Part shown: positions 2,812 to 42,861 of the stretch, one piece after another
Layout: every line of letters begins with the position of its first letter
How positions within the stretch are numbered: position 1 is the first letter of the stretch
Assembly: GCA_018895765.1 (NCBI GenBank)
Contig: JAHINX010000019.1
Location: forward strand, 1-45,410
DNA length: 45,410 nt
Reading direction: 5' to 3'
DNA from: Patescibacteria group bacterium
GTDB taxonomy: Bacteria; Patescibacteriota; Patescibacteriia; GCA-002772895
The notes under the pieces: model-generated
What the model was told of the DNA's origin: nothing
Database searches by the model: none
Seen by the model: the letters and a program-made list of their open reading frames with translations, nothing else
Made by a program: the position numbers and the translations under genes

Positions 2812-5800
2812 ATGTTTTGCCACCTCCACACACATTCTCACTATTCATTATTAGACGGACTGCCGAAGATTCCGGATATTGTTAATCGCGCGAAAGAGCT
2901 CGGAATGACAGCGGTCGCCCTTACAGACCATGGAACAACCTATGGTCTTATTGAGTTTTATAAAGCCTGTAAAAAAGCGGATATAAAACCAATTTTGGGA
3001 GTAGAGGCATATGTGGCGAGAAGAGGACATACCGACAAAGAGCCTGGAGTAGATACTAAGCCATATCACCTTGTGCTTCTTGCAAAAAATAAAGAGGGTT
3101 ATGAAAATATATTACGCCTTACATCAATAGCTCATCTTGATGGTTTCTATTATAAGCCCCGGATAGATAAAGAACTTTTGAAAAAATACGGCAAGGGAAT
3201 AATCGGGCTTTCCGCCTGTTTGAACGGCGAAATAGCGCGTGCGGTGCTCTCGGACAATATGGAAACAGCCGAACGGGCACTTGCAGAGTATAAAGATATT
3301 TTTGGCGAAGGAAATTTTTATTTGGAAATACAGCCTCAAACCGCCACAAAAAATAATGATCAGTCGCTTGCTAACGCGCGTCTTATAGAGCTTGCCAAAA
3401 AGACCAATACGCCTCTTGTTGCCACCAAAGATGTACATTATATAAACTTTGAAGATAAAGAGGCGCAGGATGCCCTTTTATGTATTCAGACGGGTACTAC
3501 TTTAGATAACCCAGATCGATTGAGTATGATGGATATTGATTGCTCTTTTTCTACAGAAGGGGATATGCGAGAGTGGTTTCCCGATACGCCCGAAGCAATA
3601 GAGAATACGGAAAAAATTGCCGAAGCTTGTAATGTAGAACTAGAGCTTGGCGGAAATATTTTGCCAAAATTTAAAACGCCAAATGGAAAATCGGATGTGG
3701 ATTATTTGCGCGAGCTTTGCGAAGAAGGTGTTAAAAAAAGATATAAAGAGATAACGCCGGAGGTCCGCGAACGTTTGGAATGGGAGCTTGATACTATCAA
3801 TAAAATGGGATTTGCTTCCTACTTTTTGATAGTTGCGGATTTTGTAAAATATGCAAAAGGCGAGGGGATAGTTGTCGGTCCGGGCCGTGGAAGCGCGGCT
3901 GGTTCAATTGTTTCTTACGTCCTTAGAGTTACCGACCTTGACCCAATACATTACAAATTACTTTTTGAAAGATTTTTAAATCCGGACAGAATATCAATGC
4001 CTGATATTGATATGGATTTTGCTGACATCAAACGTCATAAAGTTATTGAATATGTTATGGAAAAGTATGGGCGGGACAAGGTGGCCGGTATTATAACATT
4101 TGGAACAATGATGGCGCGCGCGGCAGTACGCGATGTGGGCAGGGTAATGGGTTTGCCATACGGAGAAGTGGACCGGATTGCAAAAATGATTCCAACTCCT
4201 GTGCAGGGCAGACATACACCTCTTTCACAGCATGTTGAAGAAGTAAAAGAGCTCCGCGAGCTATATAATGATAATCCGGATATAAAACGCCTTTTGGATT
4301 TGTCTATAAAAATGGAAGGAACCGTCCGCCACGCCTCACAGCACGCTTGTGCTGTGGTAATTGCCGATAAACCGCTTATGGAATATACTGCAATTCAAAA
4401 GGCACAGGGCGGAGATGTAGAAAGCGTAACCCAATATTCAATGAAGCCGATTGAAGATGTTGGCTTGCTTAAAATGGACTTTTTGGGGCTATCTAATCTT
4501 TCCATTATTCAGGATACGATAGAGATTGTTGAAGCAGTGAGTAAAATTGAAACAGGTGAAGGAACAAAAATTGATATAGAAAAAATACCACTTAATGATA
4601 AAAAGACATTTAATATTTTATCGCGCGCAGAGACGACTGGTGTTTTTCAACTTGAATCCTCTGGAATGAAGCGATATATAAAAGAACTCCAGCCAACAGA
4701 CATAGAAGACATTATTGCTATGGTGGCGTTGTATCGTCCGGGACCGATGCAATTTATTGAGTCATTTATTAATAGAAAACATGGCAGAGAAAAAATAAAA
4801 TATATGCATCCTTCTATGGAGAATGCATTGAAAAATACTTATGGTATTCCTGTTTATCAGGAACAGGTTATGCAAATATCAAAAGATATGGCAGGATTTA
4901 CTGGCGGAGAAGCGGATACTTTGCGTAAGGCGATGGGAAAAAAGATTGCTGAGTTGATGGCGAAGATGCGCGCAAAGTTTATTGCCGGCGCAACGACACA
5001 GGGTATATCAAAACAAATAGCAATAGAAGTTTTTAAGACATTAGAAGATTTTGCCGCTTATGGATTTAATCGATGTTTGACGGGAGATACGGAAGTTGTT
5101 GACATTAAAACAGGTAAAAAAGCAACGATAGTAGAACTTTATAAAGACAATAAATTAGTAAAAAATATTTTAGCATTGGAAGAAGGAACATTAAAATTTA
5201 AAAAAGCTAAGATAGAAAAAGTTTTTAGCAATGGAATAAAAGCAGTTTATGAACTAACTACGAAATTAGGCAGAAAAATTAAAGCAACCGACAATCATCC
5301 GTTTTTTATGTTTGATGGGTGGGTATTGCTCAAAGATTTAAAGATTGGGGATAAAATTGCCGTCCCAAGAGAATTAAATTTAAAACTAAATAGATATGAA
5401 ATAGATGATAAGCATTTGATTTTATTAGGTTATTTGATCGCTGAAGGCAATTTATGTCATCCCCATACATTTTATTTTTATTCTTCTAGTAAGGAAGAAA
5501 TAGACGACTATGTAAGTAATTTGGAGAGATTTGATAACACAAGAGCAACTATTAATCATAAAAAAAAGACTGCATCTATCCACACTGCGCGCAAGATTCT
5601 AAATCAAAAATCAGAAGCGATTGAATGGATTAGAAAAATTGGCGTTATGAATAAAAGAGCAACTGAAAAAGAATTGCCTGACTTTGTGTATGAGTTAAAC
5701 GAAAGGCAGCTGTCTTTATTGATATCAAAAATATTTCAAGGTGATGGATGTATCACTGTAAAGCGGAAACATCCTGAAATTTATTATGCTACCTCGTCAA

Positions 5801-7653
5801 TAAAGTTATCAAAGCAAATACATCATTTATTGTTGCGTTTGAATATTGTAAGTTCTATAAAAAAGAAAAAATTTAAATATCGGGGTGGTATTAAAATTGG
5901 GTATACCCTTCATATAAATCGTTATAGCAATATTGAAACATTTATAACAAAGATCGGCTGTTATTTTGTGGGACAGAAAAAAAGAGCGATAAAGCACATT
6001 TTAAAGACGCATCCTATATTAAATGGAACGATAAAAGCTAACGCGGCAAGAGGCAGTCGCGATATCGTACCGATAGAAATCTTAAGCCTAATAAAAAAAG
6101 AAATACAAAATAAGGGATATGCCTTGCGATCTTTTGCTAGGAAATATAGAATAGCAGAACGATTATTATTTGCCGATAAAATTAAGAAAGGGTTTTTGCG
6201 TGAAACCTTGGGCAATATAGCCGATATTTTAAAATCCAAAGAAATCAAAAAATATGCTAAAAGCGATATTTATTGGGACGAGATAGCCAGCATAAAATAT
6301 ACCGGAGAAGAAAAAACTTACGATTTAACAGTTTCTAAGTATCATAATTTTGTAGCCAATGATATTGTTGTGCATAATTCGCATGCAGCTTGTTATGCTA
6401 TGATCGCTTATCGCACAGCATATCTAAAAGCCAATTGGCCAAATTGTTTTATGGCGGCTTTGATGAATAGTGATTATGGAAATCTTGACCGAATTACAAT
6501 AGAAGTGGAAGAGTGTAAATCTTTGGGATTAGAAGTTCTTCCGCCTGATATTAATGAGTCATATTCAAAATTTTCTGTTGTGCCAAAAACAAATAAAATC
6601 CGTTTCGGTCTTTTGGCTATTAAAAATGTCGGAAGCGATATTGCGGATGCGATAATTAAAGAGCGCAAGGAAAATGGAAAGTTTGAATCATCGGAGGACT
6701 TTTTGGAACGTATTAATCATAAAAATTTGAATAAAAAATCTTTGGATGCGCTTGTGAAGTGCGGGGCAATGGATGCATTGGGCGCGAGGGCGGAGATGCT
6801 TCATAATATGCAGAAGATGCTGGATTTTAACAGAGAAATCCGTGCAGCAGCAGAAAAAACAACTGCCTGCCTTTTTGGCGGAGATGTGCTTTCCAAGCCG
6901 ACTTTGCAGATGGAACCGGCTGAACCGATAGAGAAAAAAGAAATTTTGGCTTGGGAAAAAGAGCTTCTCGGGCTTTATGTGAGCGCTCATCCGTTTTTGG
7001 ATATAAAGCCGTTAATAGCAGATTTAATTAAAAATATTGATGAGCTAAAAGAAATGAAAGACGGAAACTGGGTAAATGTTGCCGGCGTGATAACAAAAAT
7101 CCATAGCATTAGAACAAAAAAGAACGAACCGATGTGTTTTGTAACTATAGAAGATGGAATGTCTTCATTTGAGATCGTTGTTTTCCCTGGGGTGCTGGAA
7201 GGAACCCGTGAATTATGGCAAGAAGATAGTATTGTAATTGTCGGCGGGCGTCTTTCTTTTAAAGATGGGGAAATAAAAGTGCTGGCAAATAAGGTAGAGG
7301 TTGTGAGTGTTGATAATATGGAAAAAATAAAATCCGATTTTACATCGGTAAAATCGGATAAATCCCAAATCCCAAATCCCAAATCCCAACAAAACTCCAG
7401 CCCTCAAGTTCAAGATTCCGAAACTATTAGCGTCCCGACTCCCAATAGTGTGAAGGAATTTTTTAATGGTAATATTGCGCTAAAAGATGACGGATTATAT
7501 ATTTCTTTGCCAAAAACAATGAAGAAAGCGCAAGTGGAACATATAAAATTATTATTACAAAAACACCCGGGAGATACCCAAGTGTTTTTGGCTTTGCCGG
7601 ATAAGCCGGCAATTAAAACTAGTTTTAAGGTTGACGCGGAAAAATTTATTTAA
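2812..7653 (+). CDS. dnaE: DNA polymerase III alpha subunit (DnaE), intein-containing precursor
   Basis: PHP domain (HLHTHSHYSLLDG), GPGRGSAAGS, MPDIDMDF, OB fold and C-terminal domain. The conserved GFN(K/R)-SHAA motif is split by a 435-aa insert. Confidence 0.97.
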   Translation: MFCHLHTHSHYSLLDGLPKIPDIVNRAKELGMTAVALTDHGTTYGLIEFYKACKKADIKPILGVEAYVARRGHTDKEPGVDTKPYHLVLLAKNKEGYENILRLTSIAHLDGFYYKPRIDKELLKKYGKGIIGLSACLNGEIARAVLSDNMETAERALAEYKDIFGEGNFYLEIQPQTATKNNDQSLANARLIELAKKTNTPLVATKDVHYINFEDKEAQDALLCIQTGTTLDNPDRLSMMDIDCSFSTEGDMREWFPDTPEAIENTEKIAEACNVELELGGNILPKFKTPNGKSDVDYLRELCEEGVKKRYKEITPEVRERLEWELDTINKMGFASYFLIVADFVKYAKGEGIVVGPGRGSAAGSIVSYVLRVTDLDPIHYKLLFERFLNPDRISMPDIDMDFADIKRHKVIEYVMEKYGRDKVAGIITFGTMMARAAVRDVGRVMGLPYGEVDRIAKMIPTPVQGRHTPLSQHVEEVKELRELYNDNPDIKRLLDLSIKMEGTVRHASQHACAVVIADKPLMEYTAIQKAQGGDVESVTQYSMKPIEDVGLLKMDFLGLSNLSIIQDTIEIVEAVSKIETGEGTKIDIEKIPLNDKKTFNILSRAETTGVFQLESSGMKRYIKELQPTDIEDIIAMVALYRPGPMQFIESFINRKHGREKIKYMHPSMENALKNTYGIPVYQEQVMQISKDMAGFTGGEADTLRKAMGKKIAELMAKMRAKFIAGATTQGISKQIAIEVFKTLEDFAAYGFNRCLTGDTEVVDIKTGKKATIVELYKDNKLVKNILALEEGTLKFKKAKIEKVFSNGIKAVYELTTKLGRKIKATDNHPFFMFDGWVLLKDLKIGDKIAVPRELNLKLNRYEIDDKHLILLGYLIAEGNLCHPHTFYFYSSSKEEIDDYVSNLERFDNTRATINHKKKTASIHTARKILNQKSEAIEWIRKIGVMNKRATEKELPDFVYELNERQLSLLISKIFQGDGCITVKRKHPEIYYATSSIKLSKQIHHLLLRLNIVSSIKKKKFKYRGGIKIGYTLHINRYSNIETFITKIGCYFVGQKKRAIKHILKTHPILNGTIKANAARGSRDIVPIEILSLIKKEIQNKGYALRSFARKYRIAERLLFADKIKKGFLRETLGNIADILKSKEIKKYAKSDIYWDEIASIKYTGEEKTYDLTVSKYHNFVANDIVVHNSHAACYAMIAYRTAYLKANWPNCFMAALMNSDYGNLDRITIEVEECKSLGLEVLPPDINESYSKFSVVPKTNKIRFGLLAIKNVGSDIADAIIKERKENGKFESSEDFLERINHKNLNKKSLDALVKCGAMDALGARAEMLHNMQKMLDFNREIRAAAEKTTACLFGGDVLSKPTLQMEPAEPIEKKEILAWEKELLGLYVSAHPFLDIKPLIADLIKNIDELKEMKDGNWVNVAGVITKIHSIRTKKNEPMCFVTIEDGMSSFEIVVFPGVLEGTRELWQEDSIVIVGGRLSFKDGEIKVLANKVEVVSVDNMEKIKSDFTSVKSDKSQIPNPKSQQNSSPQVQDSETISVPTPNSVKEFFNGNIALKDDGLYISLPKTMKKAQVEHIKLLLQKHPGDTQVFLALPDKPAIKTSFKVDAEKFI
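5074..6378 (+). mobile_element. Intein with LAGLIDADG homing-endonuclease domain inside DnaE
   Basis: Begins CLTGDTEVV right after ...AAYGFNR and ends ...DIVVHN, followed by SHAACYAM. LAGLIDADG-type motifs are LLGYLIAEGN and LISKIFQGDGCI. Excision restores GFNR-SHAACYA. Confidence 0.9.
7360..7387 (+). repeat. (AAATCCC)x4 perfect heptanucleotide microsatellite inside dnaE
   Basis: Four exact units encode KSQIPNPKSQ in the linker before the DnaE C-terminal domain. Confidence 0.95.
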
Positions 7654-9636: not shown

Positions 9637-10758
9637 ATGTTAACTCAGAAAAAGGGAGGAGTTTTCAAAAAAATAGGTATATTGTTCGTAAGCTCTATTC
9701 TGGTGCTATTTTTTATCGTGATGTATATGGCCCTGTCCCGTGCGACGATTGTTATAGAGCCAAAGGAAGAAACAATCAGCGCTGATTTGTTTGTAACGGT
9801 AAAATCTGCAAACCTTACGAAAGGTGATATCTTGGGCAAAATGGCAACAACAACAATATCCCGCGAAGCATCTTATACTGTAAGCGGAGACGACCGCGAG
9901 GTTCCGGCTAAGGCCGAAGGCGAAGTGATTATTTATAATAAATACGGCAAAGACCAGCAGTTAATTGCCACTACAAGGTTTTTATCGGACAATGGTGTTT
10001 TATTCAGGCTGGTAAATGGAATAAATGTTCCGGCTGGAAAGAGTGTTACAGCGCTTATACGGGCGGATAGCGAAGGAAAAGAGGGAGAGGTCGCGATATC
10101 CCACTTTACAATTCCTGGATTAAGCAACGATTTGCAAAAATATATTTATGGAGAGAGCGAAAAAGTGATGACAGGTGGAACTAAAAAGGTTGCAGCCCTA
10201 ACACAAGAGGCTATTGATGAGGCAGTAGATAACCTAAAATTAACCCTGATAACTGAAGCAAAAGAAAAGCTAAAAGATAAAATTACCTTAGACAGTACTT
10301 TTGTCGGAATTGCTTATAGTGGCGATATTAAAGATGGTAAAATAAGCGCTAAGCCGGGAGATACCGTTGACAGTTTTAAAGTTAGTATAATAATGGACGT
10401 TGTTGGCATTGCATATAGTAAAGATCTGGAAGAACAGGCAGCAAAGACTTTGGCGGGCATTATTTATTCCGACAGAAAGCTTACGTCATCCAATCTTCTA
10501 AGTCTGCAACCGGAAGTTGAAACTGTTGATCTTGAAGCTGGAGCTGCAAATATGAAAGTCGCGATAGAAGGAAAAACAATCATAAATTCCAATAGTCAAA
10601 TTTTTGATAAGGAAAAAATGGCCGGAATGTCGGCAGAAGAAGTAAAAGAATATTTGAGCCAATATGCGGGCGTAGAAAGCGTAGAAATAAAATTTTTTCC
10701 GTTTTGGCTTGATAAGGTGCCAAAATTGAGGGATCATATAAAGGTTGTAGTAAGATAA
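9637..10758 (+). CDS. Hypothetical membrane-anchored protein (373 aa)
   Basis: N-terminal TM helix (IGILFVSSILVLFFIVMYMAL), then a beta-rich soluble region. Confidence 0.65.
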   Translation: MLTQKKGGVFKKIGILFVSSILVLFFIVMYMALSRATIVIEPKEETISADLFVTVKSANLTKGDILGKMATTTISREASYTVSGDDREVPAKAEGEVIIYNKYGKDQQLIATTRFLSDNGVLFRLVNGINVPAGKSVTALIRADSEGKEGEVAISHFTIPGLSNDLQKYIYGESEKVMTGGTKKVAALTQEAIDEAVDNLKLTLITEAKEKLKDKITLDSTFVGIAYSGDIKDGKISAKPGDTVDSFKVSIIMDVVGIAYSKDLEEQAAKTLAGIIYSDRKLTSSNLLSLQPEVETVDLEAGAANMKVAIEGKTIINSNSQIFDKEKMAGMSAEEVKEYLSQYAGVESVEIKFFPFWLDKVPKLRDHIKVVVR

Positions 10759-10764
10759 TATAAA

Positions 10765-10795
10765 TAGCGTATAGCGATTAGCATTTAGCGTTTAG
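10765..10795 (+). repeat. Heptamer stop-codon array, TAG x5 at exact 7-nt spacing (TTAGCG family copy 1)
   Basis: TAG at 10765, 10772, 10779, 10786 and 10793, between the 9637 ORF stop and thrS. Confidence 0.9.
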
Positions 10796-10804
10796 TTAAT
10801 GTTG

Positions 10805-13846: not shown

Positions 13847-15190
13847 ATGTTAAAGAATCTTAAATATAAAATAGTTACCTATGGATGCCAGATGAATAAA
13901 GCAGATAGTGAGAGGATTGAGGCATTATTGGATTTAAATGGTTTTGAATGCGCTTCTAAAGCAGAAGACGCTGATTTAATTTTAATAAATACTTGTTCTG
14001 TGCGTCAGACGGCAGAAGATCGGGTTTATGGGGCTATATATAATTTTTCTAAATTAAAAAAGAAAAAGCCCCATTTATTGCTAGGCGTAACTGGTTGCAT
14101 GGCTGGAAGGGATAAAAATGGCGCAATTCGTAATAAGTTTTTTTCTGCTCTTAATAATGGAGGAATCAAGGGTGGCCCGATAGATTTATTTTTCGAAATT
14201 ACTGATTTGCCTAAATTGCCAGAGATGATTGCTGAAAAATGGAAAAATAAAACTGTAGGGAGCTTAGCTCCCTACAGTAAAAAAATGGGTTATTTGGGGA
14301 TTGTGCCAAAGCCGGCTGAGTGGTGGAGGGGATGCGTTGTAATCCAAACAGGATGCTCTAAATATTGTACATATTGCGTTGTTCCATACGCGCGGGGCTC
14401 GGAGAAAAATAGATCTCTCGGCGCGGTTTTGAAAGAAGCGCGCACCCTAGTGAAAAAAGGAGCGAAAGAGATAATTTTACTCGGACAGGCAGTGAACAGT
14501 CATCCAAAATTTGCAGAAATATTAAAAAAAATAAACCAGATAGAAGGCGTAAACCGTACTAGTTTTGCATCGGCGCATCCAATGCATATGACGCCAGATG
14601 TTATAAGGGCGCTTGCTTTATCTAAGGTAGTAAATTATTTGCATTTGCCAGTTCAGTCGGGAAATGATGAGGTCTTGCGTAAGATGAATCGTAATTATAC
14701 TCGTGAAAAATATTTGCAAATAATTCGGCGCATACGCAAAGTTCGGCCGGATATTGCTTTGGCGACAGATATTATCGTTGGATTTCCCGGAGAAACACGC
14801 AAGCAGTTTCAGGATACGGTTTCGCTTTATAAAAAATGCGATTTTGATTTGAGTTATAATGCAATCTATTCTCCGAGAACAGGGACGTCCGCCTATAAAG
14901 CATTTAAGGATGATGTATCGCGCGAGGAAAAACGCCGAAGATGGCGCGTTTTGCAGGAATTGATGGAGCGTAATGTTTTGCGAAAAAATAAAAAATATTT
15001 TAATCAGACTGTTGAGGTATTGGTTGATGGATGCAGGGCGGGGAATTGCTATGGTTTGTCGCGGGAATATAAAAGGGTGGTATTTAAGGGAGATAAGCGG
15101 TTGATAGGGGAGATTGTTAATGTAAAAATTATAAAAGCAAAAGAGTGGGAGCTCAATGGGGAAATTACTAATTACGAATATGAAAAATAA
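13847..15190 (+). CDS. miaB: tRNA-2-methylthio-N6-dimethylallyladenosine synthase (radical SAM methylthiotransferase)
   Basis: YGCQMN N-domain, CSKYCTYCVVPYARG radical-SAM cluster motif and a TRAM-like C-terminus. Confidence 0.92.
   Translation: MLKNLKYKIVTYGCQMNKADSERIEALLDLNGFECASKAEDADLILINTCSVRQTAEDRVYGAIYNFSKLKKKKPHLLLGVTGCMAGRDKNGAIRNKFFSALNNGGIKGGPIDLFFEITDLPKLPEMIAEKWKNKTVGSLAPYSKKMGYLGIVPKPAEWWRGCVVIQTGCSKYCTYCVVPYARGSEKNRSLGAVLKEARTLVKKGAKEIILLGQAVNSHPKFAEILKKINQIEGVNRTSFASAHPMHMTPDVIRALALSKVVNYLHLPVQSGNDEVLRKMNRNYTREKYLQIIRRIRKVRPDIALATDIIVGFPGETRKQFQDTVSLYKKCDFDLSYNAIYSPRTGTSAYKAFKDDVSREEKRRRWRVLQELMERNVLRKNKKYFNQTVEVLVDGCRAGNCYGLSREYKRVVFKGDKRLIGEIVNVKIIKAKEWELNGEITNYEYEK
14253..14278. 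repeat. Perfect 25-bp palindrome CTGTAGGGAGCT-T-AGCTCCCTACAG in frame in miaB
   Basis: Encodes (T)VGSLAPYS. 24 nt are identical to 15372-15395 in miaA. Confidence 0.95.
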
Positions 15191-16082
15191 ACTACCAAAG
15201 TTAATCGTTATGTTGGGGCCGACGGCGAGTGGGAAGACTGAGCTTGCGATTAAGCTGGCGAAAAAGTTCAATGGCGAGATTGTCAATGCCGATTCGCGAG
15301 CGATTTACTGCGATATGAAAGTGGGAACCGACAGGCCGGGAAAAAATGAAGGTGGTGTGCGTCATCACTTAGTAGGGAGCTTAGCTCCCTACAGTGAGTT
15401 TAGCTTGGCGGAATATAAGAAGTTGGCTGTGGATAAGATTAATGATATTTTAAAGCGGGGGAAACAGCCGTTTTTAGTTGGGGGAACTTGGCTTTATATT
15501 TCTGCAATTACAAATAATTTGGAAATACCAAGCGTTAAGCCAAATAAAGTGTGGCGAAAAAGCCAAGAAAAATTTGAATCGGAAACGCTTTATAAAAAAT
15601 TACAAAAATTGGACCCGAAAGCCGCGGAACGGATTCATCCGAACGATAAACGCAGAATTATTCGCGCGCTTGAAGTGATTAATTTTAGCGGGAAAAAAAT
15701 ATCTGAACAACAAAAAAAAGGTGCGCCTATTTTTAATGTTTTAAAAATAGGGATTAAAAGAGATTTGAGTGAGGTTGAAAAGCGTGTAAGGGGACGGATA
15801 AAAACAAAAATGGGGGATGCGCTGATTCGCGAGACACGCCGTTTATTAAAAAAATATAGTTTAAAATTGCCGGCAATGTCTGGACTGGGATATCCAGAAA
15901 TGACAAGATATATAAAAGGCGAGCTTAGCAAAAAAGAGGCATTCGAGCTTTTAGCAAAAAATACGCGTCGGTTTGCAAGATATCAGACAAATACTTTTCG
16001 TCAGGATAAAAAAATTAAGTGGGTGAAGGGCGCAACTGATGCCGCGGAAAAAATTAAAAAGTTTATAAAAAATTCCGGGTAA
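15180..16082 (+). CDS. miaA: tRNA dimethylallyltransferase
   Basis: GPTASGKT P-loop, LVGGTWLY, and a family-typical length from ATG 15180. The start overlaps the miaB stop (ATGAAAAATAA). Confidence 0.9.
   Translation: MKNKLPKLIVMLGPTASGKTELAIKLAKKFNGEIVNADSRAIYCDMKVGTDRPGKNEGGVRHHLVGSLAPYSEFSLAEYKKLAVDKINDILKRGKQPFLVGGTWLYISAITNNLEIPSVKPNKVWRKSQEKFESETLYKKLQKLDPKAAERIHPNDKRRIIRALEVINFSGKKISEQQKKGAPIFNVLKIGIKRDLSEVEKRVRGRIKTKMGDALIRETRRLLKKYSLKLPAMSGLGYPEMTRYIKGELSKKEAFELLAKNTRRFARYQTNTFRQDKKIKWVKGATDAAEKIKKFIKNSG
15372..15395. repeat. Second copy of palindrome GTAGGGAGCTTAGCTCCCTACAGT, in frame in miaA
   Basis: Identical 24-mer in the same reading frame (VGSLAPYS). Confidence 0.95.
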
Positions 16083-16137
16083 ACCGGGATTTTTTAGAGC
16101 AATAATTATTGTGTAGAGAGTTTTTTTTCTACTCTTC

Positions 16138-16219
16138 TCCCCCTTTGGAAAAGGGGGATTAAGGGGGATTTAATAATAAATTTATAAATCCCTCCTGCCC
16201 TCCCTTTTCCAAAGGGAGG
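16138..16219. repeat. Triple-hairpin palindromic element (family B, copy 1)
   Basis: H1 is TCCCCCTT tggaa AAGGGGGA. H2 is GGGGGATTTA..TAAATCCCTCC. H3 is CCTCCCTT ttcca AAGGGAGG. It lies between convergent miaA and gatB. Confidence 0.85.
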
Positions 16220-16241
16220 AACTTGCTACAATGTTTAATTT

Positions 16242-17789
16242 CTATTTCTCAATTTTTTCAATAAGCATCTCTTTTGCCACCTCGGGATTTGCCTTTCCTT
16301 TTGATTCTTTCATTACCTGGCCGACTAAAAACATAATTGCAGTTTGTTTTCCAGCCTTATAGTCGCTCGACGCCGCTTGATGTTCGTTCACTACTTTTTC
16401 AATAATTTTGTCCATCTCGCCTTCATCTTCTTTCATCGCACCCAAGTCATGCTTATCTATTAGTTGTGACGGATCTCCGCCCGCCTCTGTCATCATTTCC
16501 AAAAGTTTCAGGGCATTTGGCCCGGAGATTTTATTTTCGTAAACCAAAATTATAAACTCGGCAAAATTTTCCGGAGTTATTTTTAAAATACGTATATCTA
16601 TGGCGTTTTGCGCCATAATTCCGCCAAGTTTGTTGATAAACCATCCAGAATAAAGCTTTGCCATTTTTTCTCCGTATTTATCCCAAATTTCTGTTTCCGT
16701 TCCTTCGATATTTGGCATAGACATAAGCCATGAAATAAGCTCTGACAGGGCGCGCTCGGTATATTCTGCTTTGTATGGGTCTTCGGTTAAAATTTCTGCA
16801 TCAGCCATAGAAAAGCCATATTCATCCATAAACCGGTATTTGCGCGCGCGCGGAAGTTCGGGAAGCATTTCTTTTTGCTTGTCGCGGATTTCTGCAAGCT
16901 CCATTGGCGGAAGGTCTGGTTCGGGAAAGTAGCGGTAGTCGCTTGAGCCCTCTTTTGTTCGCTGTTCAGTCGTGACGCCCTTTGCGTCGTCCCATCCGCG
17001 GGTTGTTTGGACATTGCTGGGTAAACCTGTGTCTTCCCAATGTTTTGTTTGGCGGGCGATTTCATACTCCAGTGCCCGCTCAACCGAGCGAAAAGAATTT
17101 AGATTTTTTATTTCTGTTTTTGGGTTTAATTGCATGGCCCAGCCTTCATCCGGTGCGGCTTTTTCTACATATTCGCGCATAGAAATATTTGCGTCGCAAC
17201 GGAGCTGGCCTTTTTCCATATCAGCGTCAGACACGCCAAGATAGCGCATAATTTTACGCAGTTCCTGCAAAAATATTTTTGCTTCTTGCGGAGAACGGAT
17301 GTCCGGCTCGCTGACGATCTCGGCAAGTGGAGTTCCCCCGCGATTATAATCCACAAGAGTTATTGTTTTGTCGGCATTGTGGTTATTTTTTGCTGCGTCT
17401 TCTTCCATATGGAGACGAGTGATGCCAATGCGAGCAGTCCGTACCCCTTCTTTTGTCGGCACATCTATCTCTAAAAATCCGGTTTCTCCCACAGGCAAAT
17501 CAAATTGGGAAATCTGATATCCCTTTGGCAAGTCGGGATAAAAATAATGTTTACGGTCAAATTTTGAATGTTCGTTTATTCTGCAATTTAAGGCAAGGGA
17601 GGCAAGGACGCCCATTTTTACAGCCTCTTTATTTATAACAGGCAAAACACCCGGCTGGCCGGTGCAGACAGGGCAGATGGTCGTATTCGGATTTTCATAC
17701 TCCCCGCGGTTTGAGCATCCGCAAAACATTTTTGATTTTGTTTTTAGCTGGACGTGTATTTCCAAGCCAATGACGGGTTCGAGGTTCAT
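16242..17789 (-). CDS. gatB: Asp/Glu-tRNA amidotransferase subunit B
   Basis: MNLEPVIGLEIHVQL..., full-length GatB including the C-terminal YqeY-like tail. Confidence 0.95.
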   Translation of the reverse strand: MNLEPVIGLEIHVQLKTKSKMFCGCSNRGEYENPNTTICPVCTGQPGVLPVINKEAVKMGVLASLALNCRINEHSKFDRKHYFYPDLPKGYQISQFDLPVGETGFLEIDVPTKEGVRTARIGITRLHMEEDAAKNNHNADKTITLVDYNRGGTPLAEIVSEPDIRSPQEAKIFLQELRKIMRYLGVSDADMEKGQLRCDANISMREYVEKAAPDEGWAMQLNPKTEIKNLNSFRSVERALEYEIARQTKHWEDTGLPSNVQTTRGWDDAKGVTTEQRTKEGSSDYRYFPEPDLPPMELAEIRDKQKEMLPELPRARKYRFMDEYGFSMADAEILTEDPYKAEYTERALSELISWLMSMPNIEGTETEIWDKYGEKMAKLYSGWFINKLGGIMAQNAIDIRILKITPENFAEFIILVYENKISGPNALKLLEMMTEAGGDPSQLIDKHDLGAMKEDEGEMDKIIEKVVNEHQAASSDYKAGKQTAIMFLVGQVMKESKGKANPEVAKEMLIEKIEK

Positions 17790-17794
17790 AAGAA

Positions 17795-17825
17795 TAGCGT
17801 TTAGCGTTTAGCAATTAGCGTTTAG
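17795..17825. repeat. Heptamer stop-codon array (TTAGCG family copy 2)
   Basis: TAG at 17795, 17802, 17809, 17816 and 17823 on the + strand. TAA is at 7-nt spacing on the - strand (TTA at 17801, 17808, 17815, 17822). Confidence 0.9.
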
Positions 17826-17878
17826 TGAATATAATATAATTTTATGGGTTTTGGGAGGATTTGTCAAAAAATAATTTT

Positions 17879-22162: not shown

Positions 22163-23254
22163 ATGGAGGAAAAAATGGCTCAAGAAGAAAGAGTATTAAG
22201 AACGCATTTGGATATAATAAGAGAATTGGTTGAAGTATTATGTTCGGAAAAAGGCATTAATGCAAGAGAGTTGGATGATGGTAAACTGGAATATAAAATA
22301 GCTGACGAACGCGTTTTGAGCTTTCTAATGCGGAAATATAAAATGCCACGGTATGGAGCAGAAGGTATTTTAAGTCACTTGTTTATGAAGGGGCTGATTG
22401 AATTTCATCAAAGTGAACACAGCTCTGTATGGTATTGGATAGTGATCAAAGTTAGCGGACGCGACCTTGCAAAAAATCAAAAAATAGCAGAAGCGCCACC
22501 TGCCAGGCAAGCGCTTAGAAATTATCTGTTTTCTTTAAGGGATGCCGGAAGAAAGATAGACTTAGCAGAGTTTACTGGATTTTGCCGATTATTTACTAAT
22601 TCATTGGCAGAAGAAAAAAGATATGAGCTTTTGGCCGGTTTGAGCAGAAAATATAATTTTTCAGAGTCAGGCGAGGCTTTGCCGGAAGCGGTTTTAACTC
22701 ACACGGCATTTGATACGCCTTTTTTGGGAAATATGATGCTCGCGCTTGAAGAGGATGAGGAAACGGCTTGTTGTAATTTTTTGGATGGTAGATTGCTACA
22801 ACTTGCCTTTTTTGTTCATGATTTTGCCGAAGGAATCAGTTTGAAGGGCGATGTTGATTTTGTAAATAAGAATAGCGCAATTGAAAAAGAAGAAGAGGAG
22901 GCCTTAGAGTTATTACTTTCGGTAGTTTCGCCTGCGTTGGCAAAAAGAATCAGAAAAGCTACTCTTGTCGTGGAAGAGGTTCCGCCGATTTGGCGGAGAG
23001 GGGAGACGCCCGAAAAAGCAAGCTGGAACGGGCAGTTCTTTAATGCTGTAGAAAATGCCGGTTATATTTCTCGCGCGCTTTATGAGGTGCAGGCGGGAAA
23101 TATTCCTTTTGGCAATGTATTTTTTGACCAGCAGGAAAAAGTTGAATATTATGTGAAAAAGTTTGAATCCTTTAGAGCTTTTATTGAACCGTATTTGGAG
23201 CTTATGCAAGAATTCCGAGAAAAATATAAAAATGCGCCATGGCGTAAACAATAA
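22163..23254 (+). CDS. Winged-helix-like N-terminal region fused to an HD-like (YfbR/HDDC2-type) domain
   Basis: FFVHDFAEGISLKGDVDF...EKEEEEALELL matches the HD-x-AE-x-x-x-GD...EEK signature of 5'-deoxynucleotidases. Start is ATG 22163 or ATG 22175 (GGAGGA lies between them). GTG 22124 is unlikely. Confidence 0.55.
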   Translation: MEEKMAQEERVLRTHLDIIRELVEVLCSEKGINARELDDGKLEYKIADERVLSFLMRKYKMPRYGAEGILSHLFMKGLIEFHQSEHSSVWYWIVIKVSGRDLAKNQKIAEAPPARQALRNYLFSLRDAGRKIDLAEFTGFCRLFTNSLAEEKRYELLAGLSRKYNFSESGEALPEAVLTHTAFDTPFLGNMMLALEEDEETACCNFLDGRLLQLAFFVHDFAEGISLKGDVDFVNKNSAIEKEEEEALELLLSVVSPALAKRIRKATLVVEEVPPIWRRGETPEKASWNGQFFNAVENAGYISRALYEVQAGNIPFGNVFFDQQEKVEYYVKKFESFRAFIEPYLELMQEFREKYKNAPWRKQ

Positions 23255-23280
23255 AAATCCTGACAAATTGTCAGGATTTT
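23255..23280 (+). terminator. Terminator hairpin AAATCCTGACAA a TTGTCAGGATTT
   Basis: 12-bp perfect arms immediately after stop 23252-23254, followed by a T-run. Confidence 0.7.
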
Positions 23281-23446: not shown

Positions 23447-23457
23447 TTGTCAGGATT

Positions 23458-24507
23458 TTATAATAGTGGTTTTTGGAGAGAAGATAATTTTGTGATAATT
23501 AATGTTTTGAATTGGGAAATATTTTCATTATCCCAAAAAAACCAGTTTTCCGCCGCTTTTGGCAAAAATCTGTCTGAGGAAAAATTTTTATGCAAATAAT
23601 GTTCTTTTAATGGCCATGTTAGATCTGCTGATGCGAGGCGGAGCATGTCAGGTATAATTTCCAATTCTTTTTGTGTCAGGGGATTGATGTTGTGATATGT
23701 GCTCAAAAACATTTCTGCTTTTTCAAAGCTTAATGGAGTATGAAAATTCCATGTCCAATCTGTTTTGCAGGCAAAAACCATTGCGCAGATAACTTCCCAT
23801 ATTCTTGGCTGATGTTTTGCCAGCTCCCAATCAACAACAGCAGAGACCTCTCCTTTTTCATTGAAAAGCATATTGGCGGCATGAAAATCACCGTGAATAA
23901 GAAGAGCCGGAAGGGCGTCTGTCTCAATTTTTGGCGACAGATGCAACTCATTGATTTTATGAGCCAAGATACTATTTATTTCTTTGTCAAAATCATCAAA
24001 AAATTGTTTTTTTGATAAATGTTTTATTACGTCAGAGTAAAGATGATCCAGCGCCCCGCGACTCCAAATTGGCACCACCGGCTCCAGATCAAGAGGAATG
24101 TTTTTTGCTAAATAATGGTAGCGGGCTAAAGTTTTCGCGATATTTATAAGTTCTTCGTCGGTTACACTATTTGTTGCTACTCTTGTGTGACCGGAGATAT
24201 AGTCAAAAAAAGTGAAGCGTTTGTTGTCTATTTCTGTAAGTGTATCGTCCTCTTTGTTTTTTATAAGTCCAGGGACGGGAAATTTTTGTTCTTTTAAATA
24301 TGCCAACAATTGATGTTCCCGTGAAATGCGCTCATTGGTTTCGCGCAAATATTTTTTCAAAAAAAATTTTCCCTTGCTTGTTTCAATAATGTAATTATCG
24401 TTTGTAAATCCGCCTTCCGCCCGGCTCAGGTTGGAAAATGTTCCCAATTCGTATTGAGATAAAAGAGAGGGGATGTCCTGTACCATTTGTCGCATTTTTT
24501 CTTGCAT
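23458..24507 (-). CDS. Phosphotransferase of the APH/choline-kinase (protein-kinase-like) family
   Basis: LIHGDFHAANMLF catalytic loop, VVDWELA metal-binding motif and an N-lobe FFLKKY. Confidence 0.75.
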   Translation of the reverse strand: MQEKMRQMVQDIPSLLSQYELGTFSNLSRAEGGFTNDNYIIETSKGKFFLKKYLRETNERISREHQLLAYLKEQKFPVPGLIKNKEDDTLTEIDNKRFTFFDYISGHTRVATNSVTDEELINIAKTLARYHYLAKNIPLDLEPVVPIWSRGALDHLYSDVIKHLSKKQFFDDFDKEINSILAHKINELHLSPKIETDALPALLIHGDFHAANMLFNEKGEVSAVVDWELAKHQPRIWEVICAMVFACKTDWTWNFHTPLSFEKAEMFLSTYHNINPLTQKELEIIPDMLRLASADLTWPLKEHYLHKNFSSDRFLPKAAENWFFWDNENISQFKTLIITKLSSLQKPLL

Positions 24508-24517
24508 ACATTTTTAT

Positions 24518-24600
24518 ACCCTCCTTTGGAAAAGGAGGGTTGGGGAGGATTTATGAATATATAATTAAATCCCCCTTACTCCCCCTTCTCCGAAGGGGGA
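24518..24600. repeat. Triple-hairpin palindromic element (family B, copy 2)
   Basis: H1 is ACCCTCCTT tggaa AAGGAGGGT. H2 is GGGGAGGATTTA..TAAATCCCCC. H3 is TCCCCCTT ctccg AAGGGGGA. H3 supplies the last 8 codons of the 24576 CDS. Confidence 0.85.
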
Positions 24601-25175
24601 AAAGTATTTATAAATCCGTCAATCTTTTTTTTGAATTCTTCCATCGAGCCGGTGTTTACAATTGTACAGTCAGCCATGGCGATTGGGCCGGCTTTATCCA
24701 GGTTTTCTATTTCCGCAAAGTCGCGCGCCCTCGCTTCTTCTTTGCTAAAATTTCTGTTCCGCAAATCAATATCATCTTTATCTGAAAATCTTTTTGAAAT
24801 CCGTTCATAGCGGAGTTCGGGCGGAGCATAGATAGCAACTATGGTTAGGCGCTCGTTATAATAATCTTTTAAAATTTTATATTCATCCCAGCTGTAAAGT
24901 CCGTCGGCAACAAGATTTTTATCTTCCAAAACTTTATCAAATTTTGGGATATTTAAAGTTGCATAAGCGCCCATTCCATGCTCTTTGCGTATTGCTTCGC
25001 GGACTTCTCTTTCGTTTTTTTCATTGGGTTCTAATCCGCGTTCTTTTATGATATCTAGAGTAATTTGTCCAAAACGGACAAAACCCCATCCGTGCGCAAC
25101 AAACGCGTCTGCTAAAATACTTTTGCCGGAACCGCACATCCCGACGATGGCAATTATTTTATTTTTATTATTCAT
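24576..25175 (-). CDS. P-loop nucleoside/nucleotide kinase-like protein (adenylate-kinase / dephospho-CoA-kinase-like)
   Basis: Walker A IVGMCGSGKS near the N-terminus, 199 aa. Substrate not inferable. Confidence 0.55.
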   Translation of the reverse strand: MNNKNKIIAIVGMCGSGKSILADAFVAHGWGFVRFGQITLDIIKERGLEPNEKNEREVREAIRKEHGMGAYATLNIPKFDKVLEDKNLVADGLYSWDEYKILKDYYNERLTIVAIYAPPELRYERISKRFSDKDDIDLRNRNFSKEEARARDFAEIENLDKAGPIAMADCTIVNTGSMEEFKKKIDGFINTFPPSEKGE

Positions 25176-25193
25176 AATTTATTTAACTGAACC

Positions 25194-25217
25194 CTAATTG
25201 CTAATCGCTAAACGCTA
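25194..25217. repeat. Heptamer stop-codon array (TTAGCG family copy 3, inverted)
   Basis: CTA at 25194, 25201, 25208 and 25215 (TAG on the minus strand). TAA at 25195, 25202 and 25209 on the plus strand. Confidence 0.9.
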
Positions 25218-25219
25218 TT

Positions 25220-27458: not shown

Positions 27459-27534
27459 AATAATTATTTTTTACAAGATATTATAGAAGCCGTTTTTGTT
27501 ATAACGATAATATCTATTTTATTTTTTGAATTTA

Positions 27535-29567: not shown

Positions 29568-32891
<3,324 letters not shown>

Positions 32892-37306: not shown

Positions 37307-37323
37307 CTACTTACTACGTACTA
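37307..37323 (-). repeat. GTAGNNN heptamer trailer on the minus strand, including the real prmC stop
   Basis: CTA at 37307, 37314 (the stop) and 37321. About 25 of 30 nt are identical to 17930-17959. Confidence 0.85.
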
Positions 37324-38285
37324 CATTTCATTACTCGCCATTTACCCGAAAGGTCTTTTGTAAATTCTATTTTTTTTGGTTTGAGTATTTTTTGTGCCAG
37401 TTTTTCTATCGCTGGTTTTTGTTTTGCGCCGATTTCTATTATTAATGTAATATTATTAATTTTTATATCGCGGATTTGTTCAAATAATTTTTTGTAAATC
37501 TCTGTGCCGGTTTTTCCTCCGACCAGCGCCCCCTTTGGTTCGTGGCGCTTTACTTCGGGTTGAGCTTTGGTCCATTCTTCTTGGGAGAGGTAGGGGAGAT
37601 TGGCGGTAATTACTATCGGGTTCCCGACTCCCGATAGTTTATTTTTCGAGTTTTTCACAGATTTTTCCGCTAAGCTTAGTATATCAAGAGATGGTTTCTT
37701 AATGTACAGTAAATCACCTTTTTTTATTGTGATTTTTGCGCCGAGCGCGTGGGCATTTTTTTGCGTCAGCGCTATTGCCTTGGGGCTGATTTCTATTGCC
37801 AACACGCGGGTGCGCGGGAATTCTTTTTTCAAAGTGATTGCAATTGCTCCGCTTCCAACCCCTACATCAACTATTTTTAAACTATTGGAAGCCAGGCTTC
37901 CAATAGTTTTTTTTGCGACGTCGATTAGGGTCTCGGTGTCCGGGCGGGGGATGAGGACGGCCGGAGAGACAAAAAAGTTTCGGCTGTAAAATTCTTTTTT
38001 GCCTGTGATGTAGGCGATTGGCTCGCGCTTTCTGCGACGAGCGATAAATTTTTTGTATTTTGCAATTTGCGCGGAAGTTAATTTTTTTTCAGGGTAAGTG
38101 AATAAAAATTCTTTTGGCTTGCCGAGCACAAAGGAAAGCAAAATTTCCGCATCCAAGAAAGCGGTATTAAAGGTCGACTTTAAATACCCCTTTCTTTTTT
38201 CCGTGTTTTTCGTAGTCCCGACAAGTCGGGACGAAGAATCGGTGAGATTTTTTACGCCCCATTTTAGGGCCTCGCTTATTGTCAT
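37314..38285 (-). CDS. prmC: Release-factor glutamine N5-methyltransferase (PrmC/HemK) with two ~22-aa inserts
   Basis: VDVGVGSGAIAI SAM motif and an NLPY variant of NPPY, located upstream of prfA. Confidence 0.88.
   Translation of the reverse strand: MTISEALKWGVKNLTDSSSRLVGTTKNTEKRKGYLKSTFNTAFLDAEILLSFVLGKPKEFLFTYPEKKLTSAQIAKYKKFIARRRKREPIAYITGKKEFYSRNFFVSPAVLIPRPDTETLIDVAKKTIGSLASNSLKIVDVGVGSGAIAITLKKEFPRTRVLAIEISPKAIALTQKNAHALGAKITIKKGDLLYIKKPSLDILSLAEKSVKNSKNKLSGVGNPIVITANLPYLSQEEWTKAQPEVKRHEPKGALVGGKTGTEIYKKLFEQIRDIKINNITLIIEIGAKQKPAIEKLAQKILKPKKIEFTKDLSGKWRVMKCST
37613..37637. repeat. In-frame palindrome CTATCGGG-ttcccgact-CCCGATAG inside prmC
   Basis: Encodes LSGVGNPI. It shares the 10-mer GGTTCCCGAC with 19417-19426. 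Confidence 0.85.
38215..38232. repeat. In-frame palindrome GTCCCGAC-aa-GTCGGGAC inside prmC
   Basis: Encodes SRLVGT. It has the same 8-mer arms as the family C inner arms (19449-19456). Confidence 0.85.
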
Positions 38286-38310: not shown

Positions 38311-38347
38311 TAAATAAAAAAATATTCAGAGCCCAACTCTGAATATT
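38311..38347 (-). terminator. Rho-independent terminator after prfA
   Basis: AATATTCAGAG cccaa CTCTGAATATT, 11-bp perfect arms, with a U-run on the minus strand. Confidence 0.7.
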
Positions 38348-42046: not shown

Positions 42047-42071
42047 ATGTGCAGAATCCAATCTCGCACAT
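42047..42071 (+). repeat. REP hairpin copy 1 (ATGTGCAGAATCCAATCTCGCACAT)
   Basis: Lies 24 nt upstream of the RAYT start, with ATGTGC/GCACAT arms. Confidence 0.85.
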
Positions 42072-42094
42072 AATAAAAATTAATAAAAAGTTTT

Positions 42095-42781
42095 ATGATT
42101 AGACCAACACTATCAGTGAATGACCATGCACATATTTATAATAGAGGAGTAGATAAGCGTATTGTTTTTAATGAAAACGCGGACTACGCGAGATTTGTTC
42201 ATACGTTGTATATATGTAACGATACAGAGTTTACTGTGAAGAATTTAAATCGAATGATTGAAAATGTGCAGAATCCAATCTTGCACATCGGAGAACGAAC
42301 CGGTGAGAGATTTGTAGATATTTTATGTTTTACGTTAATGCCGAATCATTTTCATCTTTTATTAAGACAAAATATTGATAAGGGGATATCCAAGTTTATG
42401 CATAAAATTGGTATTGCTTATACATTATACTTTAATTTAAAAAATGAACGAACGGGGTCTTTGTTTGAGGGCAAGTATAAATATAAAATTGTAAATAATG
42501 AGCAGTATTTGGTTTATTTATCCCAGTATATTCATTTAAATCCAATAAAAATTATAGAGCCGAAGTGGAAAGAGAAGGGGATAACTAATTGGAAACAGGC
42601 CAATGATTTTTTGGAAATGTATAAGTGGTCGAGTTATCAAGATTATATTGGTATTAAAAACCTTCCGTCGGTTATTAATCCGGGATTATTGGGAGAATAT
42701 TATGAAAAACCAGAGAAGTATAAAAAATTTGTAAATAGTTATTTGGTTGAAGATCTAGATAAGATTATAAATCTATCATAA
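42095..42781 (+). CDS. REP-associated tyrosine transposase (RAYT, IS200/IS605-like Y1 HUH enzyme)
   Basis: HUH motif MPNHFHLLL and catalytic-Tyr motif YIHLNPIK, flanked by REP copies. Confidence 0.85.
   Translation: MIRPTLSVNDHAHIYNRGVDKRIVFNENADYARFVHTLYICNDTEFTVKNLNRMIENVQNPILHIGERTGERFVDILCFTLMPNHFHLLLRQNIDKGISKFMHKIGIAYTLYFNLKNERTGSLFEGKYKYKIVNNEQYLVYLSQYIHLNPIKIIEPKWKEKGITNWKQANDFLEMYKWSSYQDYIGIKNLPSVINPGLLGEYYEKPEKYKKFVNSYLVEDLDKIINLS
42264..42288 (+). repeat. REP copy 2, inside the RAYT coding sequence (1 mismatch)
   Basis: ATGTGCAGAATCCAATCTTGCACAT encodes NVQNPILHI. Confidence 0.85.
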
Positions 42782-42805
42782 TGTGCAGAATCCAATCTCG
42801 CACAT
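42781..42805 (+). repeat. REP copy 3, starting at the last base of the RAYT stop
   Basis: Identical 25-mer. Confidence 0.9.
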
Positions 42806-42836
42806 TATGTATTTATTTTTTTGTTATTGCCTTCTC

Positions 42837-42861
42837 GTGTGCGAGATTGGATTCTGCACAT
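42837..42861 (-). repeat. REP copy 4, inverted (24 of 25)
   Basis: GTGTGCGAGATTGGATTCTGCACAT. It forms an inverted doublet with copy 3. Confidence 0.88.

Follow-up and report, generated by a model that had tools for sequence, protein, structure and literature searches.

The P1 palindrome in miaB and miaA

The stretch of DNA analysed here (referred to as the window) is an entire 45,410-bp contig, JAHINX010000019.1, of a Parcubacteria/Patescibacteria metagenome-assembled genome (MAG), and it carries the adjacent genes miaB and miaA, which share a short palindrome, P1, within their coding sequences (Table 1). An exact 24-mer, GTAGGGAGCTTAGCTCCCTACAGT, occurs on the plus strand at 14255-14278 in miaB and at 15372-15395 in miaA, 1117 bp apart, and both copies lie within intact open reading frames (ORFs) and are read in one frame as the peptide VGSLAPYS, exactly as reported in an earlier note on this DNA. 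No further copy is present in the window at ≤3 mismatches, and none of 100 dinucleotide-preserving shuffles contained any match. The view of that note that the identity goes beyond chance or common descent of the two genes is upheld. The palindrome in miaB had been described as 25 bp long with 12-bp arms, but it actually extends over 27 bp with 13-bp arms. It is located in the linker joining the UPF0004 and radical S-adenosylmethionine (SAM) domains, and is predicted to form an RNA hairpin of -20.6 kcal/mol (z = -7.1). The copy in miaA has TTA (the Leu of HHL) rather than ACT as its left triplet, which leaves 10-bp arms.

The two genes overlap in the window (15156-15190) and are adjacent in locus L021 too, and in the closest relative, of the CG10 lineage (L011, 7405-10001), three genes separate them (encoding MarR, an AAA_18 kinase-like protein, and an ABC ATPase). 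A connection between the palindromes and the absence of these three genes was considered and rejected, as the junction lies away from the palindromes. Because the more distant L021 has adjacent miaB and miaA, the block in L011 is taken to be a lineage-specific insertion unrelated to the palindromes. A tRNA or known-RNA origin of P1 was likewise rejected: the window contains no tRNA gene found by ARAGORN and no Rfam match at the gathering threshold, and related loci gave only a tRNA-Ser and an unrelated LOOT RNA (Rfam RF03000, 64 bits), the latter on a P1-bearing contig (L003, 249-376).

Table 1. Location of the mia genes, the hairpin elements, and the Y1 transposase locus in the window.
Feature	Position	Strand	Description
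DnaE-tail superfamily member	7423..7449		ACTATTAGCGTCCCGACTCCCAATAGT, 1 mismatch; C-terminal tail; peptide TISVPTPNS
miaB (tRNA methylthiotransferase)	13847..15190	+	Intact 447-aa ORF; 100% identity to P0241; PF00919, PF04055, and PF01938
P1 in miaB	14252..14278		Perfect 27-bp palindrome ACTGTAGGGAGCT-T-AGCTCCCTACAGT; peptide TVGSLAPYS
miaA (tRNA dimethylallyltransferase)	15180..16082	+	Intact ORF; database protein P0001 starts at 15180; longest ORF from 15156
P1 in miaA	15369..15395		24 nt (15372-15395) same as miaB copy; peptide (L)VGSLAPYS
prmC (release-factor glutamine methyltransferase)	37314..38285	-	P0121; hosts two superfamily members
Third superfamily member	37612..37638		In prmC; ACTATCGGGTTCCCGACTCCCGATAGT; 9-bp stem, 9-nt loop; peptide LSGVGNPIV in other open frame
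P2	37881..37907		Inside prmC (minus strand); perfect 27-nt palindrome ACTATTGGAAGCC-A-GGCTTCCAATAGT; peptide TIGSLASNS; linker before SAM-binding motif
Second 27-nt hairpin group	38321..38347		AATATTCAGAG-CCCAA-CTCTGAATATT; intergenic; relatives in frame in ArgS (L008) and present in L003
P5	42047..42071	+	Hairpin ATGTGCAGAATCCAATCTCGCACAT; 24 nt upstream of transposase start
RAYT-like Y1 (HUH) transposase	42095..42781	+	228 aa; HUH motif NHFHLLL; tyrosine motif YLSQYIHLNP
P5 copy	42264..42288	+	In frame within transposase ORF (NVQNPILHI), variable region
P5 copy	42781..42805	+	Abuts transposase stop codon
P5 inverted copy	42837..42861	-	30 nt further on; REPIN-like doublet with 42781-42805

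A superfamily of 27-nt hairpins

P1 is one member of a superfamily of hairpins with the pattern ACTNTNGG-N11-CCNANAGT (consensus ACTRTHGG-N11-CCDAYAGT). At ≤1 mismatch, this pattern has four matches in the window, compared to 0.04 expected, starting at 7423, 14252, 37612, and 37881. The miaA 24-mer is an additional member, bringing the number to five copies in the window's 45 kb, all inside ORFs. The earlier statement that the repeat is absent elsewhere in the window is therefore correct for the 24-mer itself but not for the family, which has 27-nt relatives in dnaE (7423-7449) and prmC (37612-37638 and 37881-37907). P2, the relative at 37881-37907, has a predicted hairpin of -15.9 kcal/mol and 9 of 13 arm positions in common with P1, with all four differences mirrored in the other arm. 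Another in-frame perfect palindrome (7332-7359; ATCCGATTTTAC-ATCG-GTAAAATCGGAT, 12-bp arms) is found in the C-terminal tail of DnaE, 64 nt before the copy at 7423.

Loci fetched around the orthologs yielded 13 more superfamily copies, from at least seven other samples (ENA, JGI, Logan, and NCBI). Some are in spacers, and others are hosted by genes such as those of ThyX, PrmC, and MiaB and a Dus-like gene; one locus, L022, has 4-5 copies in 11.6 kb. Individual subfamilies recur in different genes: ACTGTAGGAAGCGAGACTCCCTAYAGT (TVGSETPYS) is found in both PrmC of L019 and MiaB of L020, ACTATCGGAAGTCGGAAAYCCGATAGT (TIGSRK[PS]DS) in both PrmC of L018 and MiaB of L021, and the exact reverse complement of ACTATCGGAAGTCGGAAAYCCGATAGT (TIGFPTS[DN]) in MiaB of L021 and PrmC of L018. 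Subfamilies with asymmetric loops were found in both orientations.

An alignment of 18 superfamily copies shows that the stem, rather than its sequence, is retained. Paired cells make up 84.6%, compared to 32-46% with slid partners; 7 of the 13 stem pairs are changed on both sides, none of 500 shuffles attains the covariation score, and the only invariant positions are T5, G7, and G8 and their partners. An example is ACTATAGGG...CCCTATAGT in L020, which differs from P1 by a single compensated pair. A P1 variant in L020 (2050-2076; ACTATAGGGAGC…) has 11 nt in common with the T7 promoter core (CACTATAGGGAGA), which is probably a coincidence.

A second group of hairpins, also about 27 nt long, starts with (A/T)ATG and ends with CAT(T/A), and its copies likewise differ by compensatory stem changes. 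Its sites are 38321-38347 and 1964-1994 in the window, 2819-2845 in L008, 2316-2342 in L016, and 3825-3851 in L003; in-frame copies encode NVESSTLNI in ArgS and YEQRLPLLI in PrmC.

Dispersal of P1 beyond the mia genes

Public collections were scanned with the 21-nt core of P1. It was found in nine metagenome contigs, all from one sample, and only once among 185,579 species-representative genomes, in an Anaerolineaceae MAG and with different ends. This single match is treated as unrelated, because ~0.5-1 chance match is expected (20 specified bases, 596 Gb), and we accordingly rejected a wide taxonomic spread of P1. A phage origin was also rejected, with 0 matches in viral contigs. The 27-nt unit was seen only in Parcubacteria-type contigs.

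Among the metagenome contigs, P1 is in frame in the arginyl-tRNA synthetase ArgS of L008 (as TVGSLAPYS) and in a GT2-like glycosyltransferase of L005, and the MiaA ortholog of L007 has it where the window's MiaA does. Roughly half of the copies on these contigs are intergenic (L003, L004, L010, and one locus assembled three times as L006 and L002/L009). P1 in L002 directly abuts a second palindrome, ATTGGAAGCCTGGCTTCCAATAGT, which is also present in the window as P2, and three contigs end in P1-P2; P1-type hairpins can break metagenome assemblies. Comparison of the flanks of ten P1 copies showed that the patch ends vary, with 24-nt copies that are without either ACT or AGT, and no target-site duplication was found at these flanks. 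The only duplication found is in L010, where P1 lies between two copies of CCCACAATCTCAATT; this arrangement could reflect either an insertion accompanied by duplication or a further composite repeat, and we assign it to another repeat. A further conserved motif, GGGGACATTGTAAAATTCCCCCCACAATCTCAATT, precedes terminator hairpins on these contigs (L010 12910-13040, L002 1380-1480, and L003 4850-4930).

The unit is exactly nine codons long, and its linker-frame peptide has the form T-V/I-G-x-x-x-P/S-Y/N/D-S. Frame 1 of P1 gives the bland, linker-like T-V-G-S-L-A-P-Y-S, frame 2 contains TAG twice, and frame 3 is open and encodes R-E-L-S-S-L; when P1 is reversed, its central base turns TTA into TAA in frame 1. 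Given these properties, purifying selection alone would leave in-frame, same-orientation copies. The copies in miaB and miaA thus appear coordinated but are not, because the survivors in genes are those that are in frame, in the same orientation, and in tolerant linkers. An exception is the window copy at 37612, which is read in the other open frame. Such nine-codon hairpins explain the odd, low-conservation peptides of this form in Parcubacteria proteins, and should not be taken for gene-specific regulatory signals.

Insertion and subfamily turnover in PrmC and MiaB

Many PrmC orthologs in the clade contain a 9-aa unit at one linker position, just before the SAM-binding motif, with variants such as TIGSLASNS, TVGGFAPYS, TIGLPKPDS, TVGGRTPYS, and TIGFPTSNS, and two orthologs have two units in tandem. 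As other orthologs are without the unit, including that of the window's closest relative (P0126), the unit in PrmC is an insertion of nine amino acids. The subfamily at this position differs between genomes: in the window it is P2 and in L016 a P1 variant (two substitutions), and the upstream flank is near-identical.

The MiaB linker behaves in the same way. Across the window and its relatives, the columns of P1 read TVGSLAPYS (window), TIGSLAPYS, TIGYHVPNS, TIGLTMSNS, TVGVPVSYS, and TIGFPTSDS, and in the closest relative they read VKNTQKPYS, of equal length; an indel of 2 codons lies just downstream, within a variable linker. In both PrmC and MiaB, which subfamily occupies the linker columns varies from genome to genome.

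Overwriting of native sequence in MiaA

In MiaA, the patch aligns without gaps to 60 orthologs, and VGSLAPYS stands opposite IDIKDPSE, again gap-free, in the solved MiaA of B. halodurans (PDB 2QGN). That the patch replaces native sequence without added length, as proposed earlier, thus holds exactly for MiaA; the parallel claim for MiaB holds approximately, given the indel downstream of the palindrome. The patch had further been said to overwrite a conserved HHL(I/L)D-x-x-DP segment. An overwrite did occur, but this description was overstated, as the native segment of the clade is HHLV[N/G]F..P[D/N]K, not HHLID, and the V, G, A, and P of the patch are already used by relatives. Native relatives have 11-13 of 24 nt in common with the patch, and their segment forms a weak quasi-palindrome, CTTGT.GG...CC.ACAAG (-7.4 kcal/mol).

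Across miaA, the identity of the window to L007 is ~75%, no higher than that of either to the patch-free L011, and despite this flank identity the two share 29 identical nt across the patch. In MiaA of L022, a different subfamily (GTAGGGCTTCGCAACCCCTACAGT) occupies exactly the same columns, and this copy has a 24-nt match to one located between genes, 5 kb away in that genome. Judging from these alignments, a native, length-constrained coding sequence is overwritten in MiaA in two or three lineages. It is implausible that, two or three times, an insertion was offset exactly by a subsequent deletion, and we therefore conclude that the elements can overwrite resident or hairpin-like sequence of equal length.

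Neither of two recombination scenarios for this site was retained. One was that the window and L007 share a recombined segment surrounding the patch. Identity does reach 86-89% in the two 90-nt windows at or after the patch, but all relatives conserve this region, and once multiple testing is taken into account the excess is marginal. The 27-mer as a tyrosine-recombinase (dif-like) site had no supporting evidence, and recombination between the palindrome copies of miaB and miaA would destroy both genes. In L007, miaA does not adjoin miaB and has a tRNA-Ser gene and an integrase gene upstream. A XerC/D-like tyrosine integrase (L007 1812-2624) or a fragment of one (L022 188-538) lies just upstream of the patch-bearing miaA, and no functional link of the integrase to the MiaA patch was found in L007 or L022.

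A hairpin-flanked Y1 transposase in the window

The window contains a gene encoding a Y1 (HUH) transposase similar to RAYTs, the tyrosine transposases associated with REPs (repetitive extragenic palindromes). The protein matches PF01797 (Y1_Tnp) with 34.4 bits (cut-off 23), and its NHFH and YIHLNP motifs are invariant across 40 homologs, in a family of 15,474 cluster representatives. Its best and only NCBIfam match is NF047646, REP-associated tyrosine transposase, which at 37 bits falls short of its cut-off, 80, and its profile has equally weak matches to 4ER8 (E = 0.037) and ISDra2 TnpA (E = 0.04). Together with four copies of its own hairpin, P5, the transposase forms a REPtron-like locus (42047-42861).

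Every homolog with a readable context is flanked by its own, different hairpin family. In L023 these are perfect odd-centred palindromes of 23 and 31 nt, with a 27-nt ACT...ACAGT unit as the copy within the ORF; in L024 there is a REPIN-like doublet; L026 contains two tandem transposase genes, each with its own hairpins; and L028 has a perfect 11+3+11 palindrome. The gene in L028, from the CG10 relative, is a syntenic, 85%-identical ortholog next to EF-Ts. As the ortholog is syntenic and single in the two relatives compared, the sequences suggest a vertically inherited, domesticated gene, as described for RAYTs, rather than an insertion sequence (IS). The gene has the Y1 HUH fold motifs of RAYTs, and their syntenic inheritance with flanking inverted hairpins. 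The enzyme is nevertheless probably not the mobiliser of P1, because the CG10 relative has its ortholog but no superfamily copy in the 41.7 kb compared. No Y1 homolog was found in the P1-bearing loci L002-L010, where Pfam scans of 20 ORFs detected PIN, NYN, a tyrosine integrase, restriction-modification, and a vault-like protein and no Y1 transposase. The superfamily peptide signature had 0 matches in 150 representatives of the RAYT-like family.

Origin of the repeat

We consider it likely that the 24-mer is a copy of P1, and that P1 is one subfamily of a selfish, REP-like superfamily of 27-nt hairpins that populates a Parcubacteria clade and is probably moved by a hairpin-specific HUH enzyme. 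The option of a palindromic-element footprint, one of several raised in the earlier note, was therefore essentially correct. The elements would spread via single-stranded DNA hairpins by a Y1 HUH (RAYT-type) transposase, and the mobiliser of P1 is probably a paralog elsewhere in the genome. They would insert, as in PrmC, and may also overwrite same-length resident hairpins or hairpin-like native sequence, either by cleavage and strand transfer on both sides of the hairpin or by ectopic templating; overwriting would yield the length-neutral MiaA patch and the subfamily turnover at fixed sites. For the mechanism, which we infer, HUH-mediated insertion and cassette exchange is favoured, with enzyme-free ectopic templating as its main rival.

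Several observations weigh against this interpretation. The GTAG of P1 is base-paired with CTAC and is not an unpaired tag, and other subfamilies have ATAG, ATTG, or ATCG at this place, so the tetranucleotide is not conserved across subfamilies. In contrast to classical REPs, each of the window's five copies is within a gene. No P1/P2-flanked transposase gene was found in the window or in L002-L010, the window's sole RAYT-like gene being flanked by the unrelated P5, and no superfamily copy is present in 41.7 kb of syntenic DNA of the closest relative (L011 and L028). RAYT and IS200-type transposases are not separated by sequence here, with the NCBIfam match below cut-off and 4ER8 and ISDra2 tied. 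Lastly, the chemistry of overwriting is putative.

A narrower form of the proposal is that nine-codon hairpins specific to Patescibacteria spread by enzyme-mediated cassette exchange, in which a hairpin-specific, RAYT-type HUH enzyme would cut on both sides of a hairpin already in place, or of sequence that only resembles one, and paste a donor hairpin of equal length, resulting in the in-frame overwriting of conserved coding DNA such as the HHL segment of MiaA. We regard this as possible rather than probable. If it were true, linker peptides of housekeeping proteins would be repeatedly rewritten, a new route of protein-sequence change, and these genomes would provide natural-history evidence on REP dissemination.

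The same dispersed repeat might instead have spread without a dedicated enzyme, through ectopic gene conversion or replication template-switching between hairpins, with the stem ends ACTNTNGG/CCNANAGT as microhomology and intrastrand template switching regenerating perfect palindromes. The length-neutral patches and the turnover at fixed sites would fit this route, as would the variable patch ends, the quasi-palindromic character of the native MiaA segment, and the lack of copies in a relative with the same RAYT ortholog. However, an 8-nt microhomology is very short for recombination, the native sites resemble the patch at only 11-13 of 24 nt, and new sites with net insertion (the PrmC unit and its tandem doublets) are hard to obtain by conversion alone; the consistent flanking of Y1 transposase homologs by hairpins also speaks for an enzyme, and we find the enzyme-free route unlikely. 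Selection for function is improbable to a greater degree. The hairpins could act in RNA at domain boundaries, in translation pausing or mRNA stability, or as sites for dimeric proteins like parS, NBS, or matS, which also occur inside genes, and their predicted stability is very high. They do lie between domains in MiaB, PrmC, and ArgS, and proteins with no more than 45-70% identity still have the linker sites of MiaB, PrmC, and MiaA occupied, while compensatory changes keep the stem. Yet such elements are also found in spacers, gene tails, and the transposase's own ORF, their loops and stems vary freely between subfamilies, no Rfam match at the gathering threshold exists in the window, and the closest relative keeps the genes without hairpins at all these sites. 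Identical 27-mers at unrelated loci, moreover, require copying and not selection in situ.

Three further explanations have little to recommend them. The earlier note also raised the idea that a shared hairpin couples miaB and miaA, whose products both act on tRNA A37, as a regulatory, processing, or recombination site. Two identical copies 1117 bp apart in adjacent, functionally linked genes, and the same patch in the MiaA ortholog of another organism (L007), would agree with this coupling, but the 24- to 27-mer is also in ArgS, a glycosyltransferase, and spacers, close variants are in PrmC, ThyX, a Dus-like gene, and DnaE (the window's own PrmC and DnaE among them), miaA of L007 is not beside miaB, and the miaA and miaB of the closest relatives have no patch. 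The note had itself named a dispersed repeat in unrelated genes as the outcome that would speak against coupling, and this is what was found; we now consider coupling very improbable. An equally poor candidate is a DNA-uptake-signal-like sequence, accumulated by uptake bias and homologous replacement. The uptake signal sequences of Pasteurellaceae and Neisseriaceae (USS/DUS) are asymmetric motifs of 9-12 nt that occur at ~1 per kb and arise by point mutation. Like these, P1 is an exact, short, in-frame motif without length change, in less conserved protein parts and in a preferred frame, and it is identical across organisms ~25% diverged. Unlike them, it is a block-copied palindrome of 27 nt, far longer than known uptake signals, with a density of ~1 per 10-20 kb and many co-existing subfamilies of different sequence, and it shows no graded near-matches (2 exact copies and none with 1-3 mismatches in 45 kb). 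That the palindrome is an artefact of assembly or sequencing, for instance an adapter or a chimera, is hardly credible: all metagenome matches come from one sample and some copies are near contig ends, but the patched genes are intact, with frame and length preserved, proteins from NCBI, JGI, ENA, and Logan assemblies have this patch too (P0003), and related subfamilies occur in at least seven independent samples.

Comparison with known repeat systems

The nearest type among known systems is the REP/REPIN-RAYT system, in particular the perfect-palindrome group 3, e.g., the 23-nt REP of Stenotrophomonas maltophilia (PMC3733652, PMC8266576). REPs are hairpins of 20-40 bp with an unpaired GTAG or CGTC tag and subfamilies with complementary stem changes, and are mostly extragenic (PMC3733652), although some REPs of Opitutus terrae, Thauera, and Rickettsia conorii are described as intragenic and in frame, those of R. 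conorii matching RPE-4 and RPE-6 (PMC3733652). The cleavage site of TnpA_REP is a CT on the 5' or 3' side of the hairpin, with GTAG as guide, and the enzyme performs strand transfer in vitro (PMC8266576). The superfamily described here resembles REPs in being a short dispersed hairpin (27 nt), in having subfamilies with alternative complementary stem residues, in the CT-GTAG-stem-loop layout of P1, with CT immediately 5' of GTAG, in the hairpin-flanked Y1 HUH transposase gene in the window and relatives, and in its intragenic in-frame copies. A REP usually has >100 dispersed copies per genome; here, dispersal was seen from the 45-kb window, L022, and nine contigs. Overall, the repeat acts like a REP or a Rickettsia palindromic element (RPE), but differs from a strict REP in three respects, namely the paired and variable tag, the intragenic location of the window copies, and the lack of a cognate transposase in the loci searched. 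It also differs in the unit of exactly nine codons with perfect odd-centred palindromes, and in that some copies replace native coding sequence with length unchanged and with site-specific turnover. The host is also different, since Patescibacteria are outside the phyla listed in the REP surveys consulted. A literature search for such elements in Patescibacteria returned nothing specific.

The RPEs (RPE-1 to RPE-8), the "protein-coding palindromes" of Ogata et al., are ~100-150 bp long and always add length. As in RPEs, the palindromes here are in frame in housekeeping genes, tolerated in loops and linkers, and also present in spacers, and insertion sites are common to related species; unlike RPEs, they are 27 nt, can be length-neutral, have unrelated sequences, and reside in a different phylum. 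Similar to the subterminal hairpins of IS200/IS605 and to palindrome-associated elements derived from them, they may be single-stranded DNA hairpins recognised by Y1 HUH transposases, but there is no IS body and no asymmetry between left and right ends, and each of the two relatives compared has one transposase ortholog, in synteny. In IS200/IS605, a tetranucleotide guide 5' of the hairpin picks the cleavage site (PMC8266576). The unit differs from a MITE (miniature inverted-repeat transposable element) in that all of it is palindrome, with no internal segment, and in having no target-site duplication at the ten P1 copies.

The dissemination of REP-type repeats is still called poorly understood (PMC8266576). 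This lineage offers a clean natural record of such spread, with a nine-codon unit, fixed sites in housekeeping genes, replacement of one subfamily by another, and overwriting at one site or more (MiaA), and, if the latter is enzyme-mediated, it suggests an exchange reaction of cleavage and strand transfer.

Other repeats and inteins in the window

Two proteins encoded in the window contain inteins: DnaE (2812-7653), with a LAGLIDADG domain, and GyrB (29568-32885, minus strand), whose counterpart in the relative (L028, 671 aa) is without one. A ~43-nt repeat rich in TAGCG units (…AATAGCGTTTAGCGTTTAGCAATTAGCGTTTAGT…) is present at 2759-2808, 10758-10800, 17788-17830, and 25183-25224; three of these four copies are directly upstream of the start of dnaE, thrS, or gatB, and the repeat may be a promoter or leader element. 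The convergent spacer between miaA and gatB contains an 82-nt G-run/C-run palindrome block (CCCCCTTTGGAAAAGGGGG…; 16134-16221), which is repeated 8.3 kb away (24520-24604) in direct and inverted register. The spacers at 23254-23280, 23447-23474, and 27470-27497 contain a perfect 27-nt palindrome, AAAATCCTGACAAATTGTCAGGATTTT, and related TTGTCAGGATTTTATAATAG motifs, and the AAAATCCTGACAAATTGTCAGGATTTT palindrome is conserved at the orthologous spot in the relative (L011, 17472).

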